From assembly GCA_964016885.1 (NCBI GenBank), contig OZ024743.1, forward strand, positions 96,038,001 to 96,102,000: DNA of 64,000 nucleotides, read 5' to 3'. Shown here in pieces: positions 49,714 to 58,356 of this stretch (its first letter is position 1; each line of letters starts with the position of its first letter). Origin of the DNA: Eledone cirrhosa. Its lineage: Eukaryota. A program made the position numbers and the translations under genes. A model generated the notes under the pieces. The model made no database searches and was not told where the DNA came from. It saw only the letters and a list, made by a program, of their open reading frames with translations.

Positions 49714-50270
49714 TATATCATTGAACGAAGCTCATCAAATAGAATAGACACAGCTTCGGTGATCTTTTCCTCACTCAATCAATAATATGAATTATTAAAA
49801 TTCTAACCGATTAGAGTGTACATATAAATATCAGTGGGGAAGACTTCGTGTGGGTAGGAAATGTGGATTACCCGGACCGATGGACCCGTTTCTACCATCT
49901 ACCGGTGGTGGTACGAAGGGAAATAGAATGTACAGAAATTACATATACATTACGATATATATATATATATATATATATATATATATATATATATATGTGT
50001 GTGTGTGTGTGTATGTGTGTGTGTGTGTGTGTGTCTGTGTGTGTGTGTCTGTGTGTGTGTCTATGTGTGTGTGTATGTGTGTGTGTGTATTGATTAGACA
50101 TATACACGAGTGAACGCATATCCATGTATAGACCGTATATAAACACATAAACTCACATATTTACAATTCGCTCGAATCCTTTTCACAAATAAAAGTAACT
50201 CTGATGGCGAACAACTTAATGTTGAAGAACTTAAATATATCAGAAATACATACATACATACATACATACA

Positions 50271-51004
50271 TGGCTGCCCCCTCGTTATCGAGTATGGCCA
50301 TTGTACGATATACCATTATAATAATTATCAATTAATTCTATCGTGCGTGAAGATTTTTTTTTAAGTGAGGAAAGACTGTGCACTGAGCCAATCCCACTCT
50401 CTGATTGACAGTAGCTATAACCCGAAAAGAAGAAAAGATCAACATCATCGGTAACTATTGAGCCGCAGGTTTTGTATCGGAGTTATCCCAGTTTCCTGAG
50501 TTGCCTTCTCCTAGAAGAATGCCCTGACAAAGGCTAGGGGTCCTTCACTCCCAGTGGTTTAACCGCACGATTGGGTATCCTGCCCGATTATTTCGATGTC
50601 CCCGCGCATATATATACACATGTACATATGGATATACATATATATATATATATATATATATATATATATATATATATATATATATATATATATATATATA
50701 TATATACATATGTACACATGCATATACATATATATATATATATATATATATATATATATATATATATATATATATATATATATATGTACACATGCATATA
50801 TATATATATATATATATATATATATATATATATATATATATATATATATATATATATATATATATATGTATATATACCTATGTACATGCGTATATACATA
50901 TTTACACATGTTTGGATGGCCGTTGACTCTTATGAGTTCTTCCGTCCTTTGTCAGGTTTTGTTTTTTGTCCTGCAGGGTGTCCAAAATGACCCTCTTCAC
51001 CAAG
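50271..51004 (-). mobile_element. Older diverged relative of the ~610-bp element, interrupted by a compound (TA)n tract (50608-50908)
   Basis: Shares TGGCTGCC..CGAGTATGGCCA, TCAACATCAT, CCTTCTCCTAGAA, GACAAAGGCTAGGGGTC and CCTTTG.CAGGTTTTG..GTCCAAA..TCACCAAG with 54678-55287. A further stub lies at 54318-54360. Confidence 0.7.
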
Positions 51005-51110
51005 TACACACATACACACATACATACATACATACATACATAGAAACATGCATCTATGCATGCATTCATGCATACATACAAACATATATACATACGTACA
51101 TACATACATA

Positions 51111-51730
51111 CAAGAGTACTGGTGGAATGTTCCAGTAAAAACCCCAATAAAATGCAGGCATGACAGACCAGATATTATGATATGGGACAGGGAGAAGAAA
51201 ACATGCACAGTAGTGGAAATTAGCTGCCCAGCAGATGCCAATATAATATCAAAGATTAGTGAAAAGGAGAATATTTATGCAGAACTGATGAGAAATCTGC
51301 AGATACTCCACCCTGATTACACCTTCAGATTTATGCCTGTGATTATTGGGGCACTGGGGTATGTTAGTAACTGCCTCAATACAAATCTTGAGAAGCTAGG
51401 CTTCACAGGAACAGAAAGAACACAACTAGTTAGGAAATTACAAGTACAATCCATTAATGGAACAGTAAAAATATGTAAAACATTCCAAAAACTTTACATC
51501 TAATAAATGCATATACACATGTACAGATACAAAGCATATACACATCCACACATACAACTCAAAACATACACATCCACACATACAATAACATCCATATCTA
51601 GACATGCATGCATACATAATCTACTTAGTTGATGTTGTGTAAATTCCAATGAGAGAGTCTTGTTTCTATGTTAGAAACCGACTCTGTCTCTATTGGCAAA
51701 TAAATTTGTGAAATTATAAAACCAGAAGAA
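51111..51730 (+). mobile_element. R4/Dong-like RLE non-LTR retrotransposon, 5'-truncated copy A (endonuclease plus 3' UTR)
   Basis: [38 protein letters not shown]...K..Y, a PD-(D/E)xK-type RLE. It ends AAAACCAGAAGAA followed by (CATA)n. Confidence 0.9.
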
Positions 51731-51781
51731 CATACATACATACATACATACATACATACATACATACATACATACATACAT

Positions 51782-56302: not shown

Positions 56303-56376
56303 CATACATACATACATACATACATACATACATACATACATACATACATACATACATACATACATACATACATACA

Positions 56377-56984
56377 TGGTGGCTGCCAACTCGTTTTCGA
56401 GTACGGCCACTACTTTATATCCATGTAGGAGAACCCCTACCGATGCGCTGAACGAATGTGACTTTTTAGTCCAGCCAGCGACTTGAAAACTCTGGTACAA
56501 ACACTACACTTGTGACAATTATTGGCACATAGCGCTGGGCCCATGGTACCATGTAACGACAAGTGCAGAGAGATCTCCAGATATAAAGAAATGCCTGTGC
56601 CGTGAAGCTTTTATAGTGAGCAAAGGCACTCACAAAGCCAGTCCCACTCTCTTAACCGAGATGATATTTACCAAAAAGAAGAACAAGTCAACATCATTGG
56701 ATACCATCAGGGTTGCAAGTGTTATATCAGAGTTTTCCTTCTCCTAGAATTCTGCCTTCACAAAGGCTAAGGGGTCATCTCTCCCGGTGATTTTGGATGT
56801 CCATTGACTCTTAAGAGCTCCTTTGCCCTTTGACAGGTTTTGTTTTTAGTTCTGCAAGATGTCCAAAGTCACCCTCCTCACCAAGAAACGTTGGTGGGGT
56901 TGCCAGTTTAGTCGCCAACGACCCGACCATGGGACAGGTTGTTCTGGGATACATGTTACCAGTAGCACCAATTGGTGACCTGAC
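56377..56984 (-). mobile_element. ~610-bp non-autonomous retroelement, copy 2
   Basis: Same ends and internal sequence as copy 1. Confidence 0.7.
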
Positions 56985-57161
56985 TGTATTATATATATAT
57001 ACATACATACATATATACATATATACATACATACATACACATATACATATATATATATACATACATATATATATACATATACACACATATATGCATATAT
57101 ATATACATACATACACACATACATACATACACATATATACATACATGTATATATATATACA

Positions 57162-57770
57162 TGGTGGCTGCCAACTCGTTTTTGAGTACGGCCACTACTT
57201 TATATCCATGTAGGAGAAACCCTACCGATGCGCTGAACGAGTGTGACTTTTTAGTCCAGCCAGCGACTTGAAAACTCTGGTAGAGATACTACACTTGTGA
57301 CAATTATTGACACATAGCGCTGGGCCCATGGTACCATGTGACGACAAGTGCAGAGAGATCTCCAGATATAAAGCAATGCTTGTGCCGTGAAGCTTTTATA
57401 GTGAGCAAAGGCACTGCACAAAGCCAGTCCCACTCTCTTAACCAAGATGATATTTACCAAAAAGAAGAACAAGTCAACATCATTGGATACTATCAGGGTT
57501 GCAGGTGTTATATCAGAGTTGTCCTTCTCCTAGAATTCTGCCTTGACAAAAGCTAAGGGGTCATCTCTCCCGGTGATTTTAGATGGCCATTGACTCTTAA
57601 GAGCTCCTTTGCCCTTTGACAGGTTTTGATTTTAGTCCTGCAGGATGTCCAACGTCACCCTCCTCAGCAAGAAACCTTGGTGGGGTTGCCAGTTTAGTCG
57701 CCAACGACCCGACCATGAGACAGGTTGTACTGGGATACATGTTACCAGTAGCACCAACTGGTGACCTGAC
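57162..57770 (-). mobile_element. ~610-bp non-autonomous retroelement, copy 3
   Basis: Same ends and internal sequence as copy 1. Confidence 0.7.
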
Positions 57771-58356
57771 ATACATACATACATACATACATACATATAT
57801 ACATACATACATACATACATACATACATACATACATACATACATACATACATACATGTATTAGTACATTCCCATTTTGCCTATGTTTCTATCTTAAAACT
57901 AGATTAATATGAGAAAAGCCTCAACTGACCTGATTGTGTTCAGAATGTACTTCCTATTGTTTATGACAGCTGACGGCAGACTTTTAAACCCTCTGATTCA
58001 GTTGAAACAGATCACACCTCTCACTTGCAATGTAGTTTTATTATAGCTTTAAATAAAGGAATACCTTCCACTGTTATATATAATATATTTAATATAGAAA
58101 TGGCTTCTACAGGACTAGAACTGTTTCATTCGAAGGAAATCATCAATGTGTTGTTTACACTCTACTAATGTATTGAGTACCTTACTTACTGTGGTTACTC
58201 CCGATTGAACTCGGGACTCATACACACACACACATACATACATACATACATACATACATACATACATACATATATATATATATATATATATATATATATA
58301 TATATATATATATATATATATATATATATATATATATATATATATATATATATATA

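Follow-up and report, generated by a model that had tools for sequence, protein, structure and literature searches.

What brings eight retroelement pieces together within 7.5 kb, each beside the same kind of simple repeat and each family in its own orientation? The question is raised by positions 50270 to 57770 of a 64,000-nt stretch of the Eledone cirrhosa genome (GenBank assembly GCA_964016885.1, contig OZ024743.1, positions 96,038,001 to 96,102,000 of the forward strand), called the window below. Here three copies of an R4/Dong-like retrotransposon with a restriction-like endonuclease (the RLE element) are interleaved with antiparallel short non-coding elements, three of them about 610 bp long. 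The explanation favoured here, with considerable confidence, is that the CATA microsatellite holds two unrelated retrotransposition systems in opposite orientation: the RLE element, which likely cuts (CATA)n, and the short elements, likely carried by a long interspersed nuclear element (LINE) of the RTE clade that lands in TATG and TA repeats. It is built on direct observations of how the nest is put together, of flanks and polarity, of target duplications around the short elements, and of the sequence that these have in common with the RTE LINE.

Organization of the nest

The separators between the pieces are all CATA or TA/CA repeat, and each junction adjoins (CATA)n or TA/CA-rich repeat. 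The layout is as follows, in window coordinates.

50246..50269: (CATA)6 array bounding the nest on the left
50270..51009, minus strand: older non-coding retroposon derived from RTE, truncated at the 5' end
51010..51111: degenerate (CATA)n spacer
51112..51730, plus strand: R4/Dong-like copy 1, endonuclease domain and 3' untranslated region (UTR), truncated at reference position 3474
51731..51782: (CATA)13
51783..54221, plus strand: R4/Dong-like copy 2, reverse transcriptase (RT), CCHC and RLE coding sequence and 3' UTR, truncated at reference position 1631
54222..54317: degenerate (CATA)n spacer
54318..~54495, minus strand: 3' UTR stub of the RTE-clade LINE, microsatellite-rich UTR and terminal stem-loop
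54496..54676: degenerate (CATA)n/TA spacer
54677..~55289, minus strand: 610-bp RTE-related retroposon copy A, full length
55287..55366: (CATA)20
55364..56302, plus strand: R4/Dong-like copy 3, CCHC, RLE and 3' UTR, truncated at reference position 3163
56303..56374: (CATA)18
56376..56984, minus strand: 610-bp retroposon copy B, four rare changes in common with copy A
56985..57160: mixed TA/CATA/CA spacer
57161..~57772, minus strand: 610-bp retroposon copy C, full length
57770..57856: (CATA)n array bounding the nest on the right

This junction content is far above chance: the ACAT background for the flank classifier is 1.4% of 6000 random positions, drawn from a systematic 600-kb sample of 60 evenly spaced 10-kb stretches. 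The RLE copies start at 51112, 51783 and 55364, corresponding to positions 3474, 1631 and 3163 in a full-length copy of 4092 bp. These starts lie within one base of the truncation points given in the original prediction (51111, 51782, 55364), which was made from the letters of the window, and the common 3' end that it reported, AAAACCAGAA(G/A)AA and then CATACATA, was also seen. All three copies are truncated and dead; the coding region of copy 2 is disrupted by frameshifts, stops and small deletions (RVT_1 E 9e-08), and copy 3 is the nearest of the three to the family majority.

The three ~610-bp copies are mutually 95–96% alike. The older retroposon on the left contains a piece of RTE 5' UTR and the terminal ~45 nt of RTE, and a (TA)n tract inside it has expanded, at about 50600–50905. 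The eighth piece, ~180 bp from 54318, is RTE LINE 3' UTR, 80–85% alike to other RTE 3' UTRs across 180–208 bp; both this piece and the RTE derivation of the 610-bp element had been overlooked.

CATA at the junctions of the RLE element

Among 69 distinct RLE 3' ends, including the three of the nest, an ACAT repeat comes next in 66, AT in two and neither in one, and the 11 junction bases are identical in 48. The 75 classified 5' junctions comprise 52 ACAT, 3 AT, 2 homopolymer and 18 other, and full-length copies have ACAT at the 5' end in 12 of 13 cases. A (TAA)n target (AAT or ATT class) was seen at 0/69 3' ends and 0/75 5' junctions. All three RLE copies in the 600-kb sample have CATA at every visible junction. 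Arrays of AT (639) far outnumber those of ACAT (94) in that sample, with AC at 215, yet AT adjoins only two of the 69 3' ends. Set against the 1.4% background, these counts support the prediction that CATA is a target of the family.

CATA might instead be just a 3' tail of the RLE element, the short element or both, with nests accumulating passively in repeat-rich, tolerated DNA. The lower frequency of CATA at 5' junctions (52/75) than at 3' ends (66/69) speaks for this, as does the known generation of microsatellites at the 3' ends of RTE elements (PMC2887409). A tail, however, cannot yield CATA at 12 of 13 full-length 5' ends and beside 5' truncations at dozens of points, and for this reason CATA is the target of the RLE element, not merely its tail. 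The original prediction had itself proposed a mere tail should most 5' junctions lack CATA; most of the 75 classified here have it. Moreover, the 3' flank of RTE and short elements varies with the site (ATGT or ATAT) and equals the 5' flank in target duplications, and passive accumulation does not produce a strand polarity such as that described below. The tail-only alternative is thus very unlikely.

Independence of the insertions

Trees of nest and dispersed copies are star-like, and a nest clade is not rejected by the approximately unbiased (AU) test (p 0.36 and 0.77); the suggested comparison of divergence between nest and dispersed copies therefore neither shows nor rejects one. Copies A and B (54677, 56376) have four rare non-CpG changes in common; of 2990 pairs from different loci, just 1 has as many. 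The changes are spread over the element, and two are absent from all 65–67 dispersed copies covering those columns. Copy C has 0 and 1 rare changes in common with A and B, and the RLE pairs of the nest have 1, 0 and 2. Elsewhere, at least one shared rare change was found in 7/10 same-locus and 161/2990 different-locus pairs of short elements, and in 4/7 and 196/1166 RLE pairs, respectively.

Judging by these changes, copy B is probably a local duplicate of copy A or has undergone conversion with it. Of the earlier claim of about eight insertions, the eight pieces and the repeat at every junction stand, but an A/B duplication would leave about seven insertions. The other pairs of the nest have 0–2 changes in common. 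Private changes number 3 in RLE copy 3, which lies between A and B, and 13–14 in A and B (13 in B), which argues that it was not copied together with B. The simplest history would be an early A/B duplication or conversion, with RLE copy 3 inserted between them later.

Could a few founders then have given rise to most of the nest, duplicated locally or spread by gene conversion through exchange between CATA arrays? The A/B changes, the enrichment of same-locus pairs elsewhere and the unrejected nest clade would all fit. The nest nevertheless holds pieces of five families or subfamilies, whose junctions differ, neither copy C nor the RLE copies show comparable sharing, and RLE copy 3 is out of step with copy B; local duplication accounts for one or two pieces, and not for targeting. 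As the main source of the nest it is unlikely, and insertion of two systems into CATA is retained as the explanation.

The 610-bp element and its likely RTE carrier

The 610-bp element gave 4554 first-look candidates and an older short subfamily 2082. Nine copies of the former in the 600-kb sample extrapolate to roughly 45,000 in the 3.0-Gb genome, and three RLE copies to roughly 15,000, with wide error. Truncation, tallied by end in 102 copies of the 610-bp element with both flanks in view, gave window-left only 41, right only 2, both 55 and neither 4; among 39 copies at loci not picked with the 610-bp element the tally was 22 left-only and 1 right-only. This one-sidedness places the 3' end window-left, antiparallel to the RLE element as first proposed.

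The 3' flank starts with ATGT in 62 of 92 copies and with ATAT in 20, so that the notion of an element specific for CATA does not extend to this family. Interrupted direct repeats surround 21/100 short-element copies, as against 5.4 in shuffles (maximum 13), and 19 of the 21 are 9–15 bp long. Given these target duplications, the 3' flank is target DNA. Target duplications of the RTE range are 7–15 bp, and the RNA's 3' end has been proposed to influence the site (PMC6007223).

By sequence comparison, the 610-bp element is a non-coding retroposon with parts derived from an RTE LINE. Its 5' UTR part is 67–74% and its 3' end 73–78% alike to RTE, with a similar hairpin. The older subfamily has 306 bp of RTE 5' UTR at 89–92% and the last ~45 nt of RTE at 87–90%, and the two short elements have a head in common (84%). 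Such a bipartite build, in which part of the RTE 5' UTR is fused to the very 3' end of RTE, is known for RTE-derived elements (PMC5786205). Searches for a tRNA head were negative (ARAGORN 0; A box absent even with 2 mismatches allowed; B box absent where one would be expected). An Rfam scan returned only microsatellite-driven matches, all below gathering score, with no ribozyme and no tRNA. Solo long terminal repeat (LTR), Helitron and miniature inverted-repeat transposable element were rejected as identities on account of the one-sided truncation, 5' inversions (L060) and no visible terminal inverted repeat. Further diverged subfamilies with the ~200-bp head of the 610-bp element occur at L003:1808-2200, L135, L156 and L057, and one hairpin in this head shows a paired change by eye.

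The RTE LINE is likely the carrier of the short non-coding elements; what carries the 610-bp element directly may be a sister family within RTE. A likely carrier can thereby be named for a very abundant short element. Carriage by a Dong-like protein or by a non-RTE LINE is highly improbable: the element does occur in the same arrays as the RLE element, and its match to RTE is imperfect, but it has no sequence in common with the RLE element, is oriented oppositely to it and inserts into (TA)n as well, its duplications fall within the RTE range (PMC6007223), and its terminal stem-loop resembles that of RTE.

The likely carrier LINE encodes an apurinic/apyrimidinic endonuclease (APE), an RT and C2H2 fingers in a domain scan; we take it to belong to the RTE clade from this architecture and its motifs. 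An intact open reading frame (ORF) of 1181 aa in 9 of 20 young copies argues that the family is probably still active. In all 19 of these 20 copies with a visible terminus, AT comes next, then TA or TATG repeat. There is also a very young RTE burst (L231-L250), with 23 copies identical across 391 bp. Inversions of the 5' end, of twin-priming type, were seen in the short element and RTE (L060:2259-2869, L055, L089, L241). The first ~780 bp of the RTE 5' UTR (L211, L219) are unlike the head of the short element and seem to include a piece of another repeat; the sequences suggest that the LINE swapped its 5' end.

Polarity and genome-wide distribution

Neighbouring elements (within 300 bp, outside the described nest) have a consistent arrangement. 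RLE elements and RTE or short elements lie on opposite strands in 70/75 pairs, and pairs are parallel in 20/21 cases between RLE elements and in 72/84 among RTE and short elements. The idea of two unrelated systems sharing one repeat in fixed opposite polarity is thus upheld well beyond the window. Of the 60 systematic 10-kb stretches, 47 are without these families, nine have one and four have three or four, while 20 RLE-anchored 9.5-kb loci have 1 to 5 elements each. ACAT arrays lie at an element end in 20/79 cases and AT arrays in 7/448, a comparison that is partly circular, since insertion splits arrays. Nests are general in this genome, and eight pieces in 7.5 kb is the densest observed: the locus is the dense end of a genome-wide pattern and not a special one, as it had first appeared. 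A targeting pair of this kind accounts for the abundance and polarity of repeat nests in this genome.

Target-primed reverse transcription is established for non-LTR elements, and both systems would insert by it. The RLE element's own endonuclease would cut (CATA)n, with priming on the TATG strand, judging by the strand of its 3' flank, while the primer for RTE would be an end that reads AT, on either the CATA or the TA strand. If the last bases of the RTE RNA pair with this AT end, the other strand would be excluded and the polarity fixed, as the model in PMC6007223 would have it. With every insertion, repeat would be left at both sides, and usable sites would multiply. Arrays may also grow by slippage, and some units would be copied locally as well, probably by slippage or unequal exchange between arrays.

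Architecture and affinities of the RLE element

Dispersed copies reach a common 5' end, giving a full length of 4092 bp. The family has RVT_1 and zf-RVT matches, with CX2CX8HX4C (CCHC) and RPD..D..E motifs read C-terminally, and domain scans gave no family match to an APE domain. Homologs are 1080–1220 aa long; none of the fetched copies of the RLE element itself has an intact ORF. Among named RT homologs the closest, at 51%, comes from Argonauta hians. A Bombyx RT protein without a name, not confirmed as Dong, has 35% identity (E 2e-106). For a full-length homolog, the relatives with solved structures are all R2 proteins (5 sequences). The scores of this homolog favour R4/Dong over R2, with E 4e-150 against the Bombyx protein and E 2e-25 against the R2 structures, the two coming from different programs.

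Three helices are confidently predicted in the N-terminal region (residues 57–129), where the domain scan gave no Pfam match and no zinc finger. Many of the top matches of this model in a wide structural search are SANT/Myb-like, the best at Z 6.9 (rmsd 2.4, 73 aligned), a value in the range of common helical arrangements; Foldseek gave no match at E<=0.001. The predicted helices fit the R4/Dong architecture of PMC7998251. A 5' self-cleaving ribozyme of the hepatitis delta virus type has been shown for R4 and Dong (PMC3774820). In Octopus vulgaris, Dong-R4 and RTE LINEs are described as abundant and recently active, with 1129 recent Dong-R4 insertions over 4.73 Mb, about 4.2 kb each (PMC13282606). 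The Dong/R4-like identity first proposed for the three copies is supported by the RT, CCHC and RLE motifs and by similarity, which make the family a candidate member of the R4/Dong clade.

A second RLE family (L005:2-1519, minus strand; L090:3092-3720; L087; L077), with ~53% protein identity to the first, has CATA flanks, agrees with it in polarity and clusters with the protein from Argonauta. A third (L090:1-2430, with 3' UTRs also in L196 and L200) has (TAA)n at its end and clusters with the relatives flanked by TAA/TTA. Its copies, as judged by eye, interrupt a TTA tract within the RTE 3' UTR, and RTE seems to spread landing sites for this family too.

Several points weigh against the explanation as a whole. 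Most loci were best matches to pieces of the window, which favours well-preserved copies. Of the 75 RLE 5' junctions, 23 were not classed ACAT; among the 18 in the category "other", seven can be put down to a deletion inside the element, an alignment that ran too far or, by eye, a short run of repeat, whereas about 11 are entirely without repeat. The proposal that each insertion duplicates its target is supported for the 610-bp element (9–15 bp) but was not borne out for the RLE element, where an interrupted duplication was found in 1/53 copies against 1.0 in shuffles, although pure repeats would hide one. The first ~200 bp of the 610-bp element match no known source, and its RTE parts match the RTE of this genome at just 67–78%. 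For the RLE element, the best score of the N-terminal fold is one that common helical arrangements also reach, and the RT trees are without any named R4, Dong, R2, NeSL or Hero row. 

Relatives elsewhere and a proposed switch of target

A metagenome scan with the endonuclease piece as query found nothing. In another metagenome scan for RLE relatives, 80 of 180 loci were kept, and the 51 of at least 2.8 kb were read. Ten are close relatives (45–58% identity): two have CATA at both ends, six have CTTA at one or both ends and two have no repeat; one of those with CTTA has TAA at its other end. CATA or CTTA flanks none of the 41 distant relatives, about 26 of which have TAA/TTA by eye. In an unrooted 32-row tree, with 24 loci labelled by eye, the group with four-base flanks is one side of a long branch (SH-like approximate likelihood ratio test 100), a clustering matched by 0/500 shuffles. 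The direction of a switch, from TAA to four-base targets, is inferred from the literature, in which TAA is the usual Dong target (PMC7998251, PMC3812793).

On balance, a broader reading is somewhat favoured: an undescribed and widespread R4/Dong branch switched from TAA to four-base C(A/T)TA targets, CATA and CTTA being one base apart, and in this genome the RLE element and the RTE/short interspersed element (SINE) system read opposite strands of one repeat, multiply each other's sites and build polarised nests genome-wide. Microsatellite targeting by R4/Dong is already known, as are Waldo's use of ACAY and short elements derived from RTE. In the literature covered, no R4/Dong element with CATA or CTTA as its target was found described; Repbase, Dfam, most subscription papers and supplements lay outside this scope and may already describe one. 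Tools for inserting genes are under development from site-specific retrotransposons, and target choice by their DNA-binding and cutting domains is only partly known; TAA, CATA and CTTA variants in one lineage are a natural series for mapping it.

Other features of the window

Satellite arrays occupy positions 1-27861 (period 35 bp, about 800 copies), 36651-41209 (period 68 bp, 67 copies) and 41351-44304 (period 23 bp, 127 copies). A 318-aa open frame at 47604-48560 on the minus strand is without a Pfam match and, judging by its motif, looks like a fragment of a Helitron Rep/helicase.

Comparison with known systems

The 610-bp element resembles Bov-tA, WALLSI, RTESINE and Ceph-SINEs in joining a piece of RTE 5' UTR to the extreme RTE 3' end (PMC5786205). 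It differs from bipartite RTE elements and SINEs in that no tRNA head was found and its ~200-bp head matches no known source. The RTE LINE is like RTE-2_OV of Octopus vulgaris in its endonuclease, RT and C2H2 finger and in a microsatellite 3' UTR beginning where the ORF ends, with 1181 aa here and 1109 there (PMC9115989). Identity of the two was rejected: of six published primers, four match with 3, 5, 5 and 5 mismatches and the others not within 5.

On the RLE side, Togen of fish is likewise microsatellite-specific and belongs to an RLE-encoding group, but its target is (TG)n and it is NeSL-related (PMC4640811). Waldo (WaldoAg1/2, earwig Waldo) targets ACAY microsatellites, ACAT included, but is listed as APE-type (PMC3812793) and, by a reference title there, in the R1 clade. 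The element described here has C-terminal RLE motifs and no APE match, so a target in common with Waldo would be convergence.

Close parallels are the Dong elements (Bombyx Dong, DongAg, snail DongBg, ostracod Dong1/2), which also have an RT with C-terminal CCHC and RLE, as well as a Myb/SANT-like region at the N terminus, free of zinc fingers and with a possible counterpart here, and insertion into microsatellites (PMC7998251, PMC3812793). In contrast to these, the RLE element of E. cirrhosa has (CATA)n as its target, with (CTTA)n in relatives, rather than (TAA)n, and it is set apart on a long separate branch from the TAA/TTA-flanked relatives.

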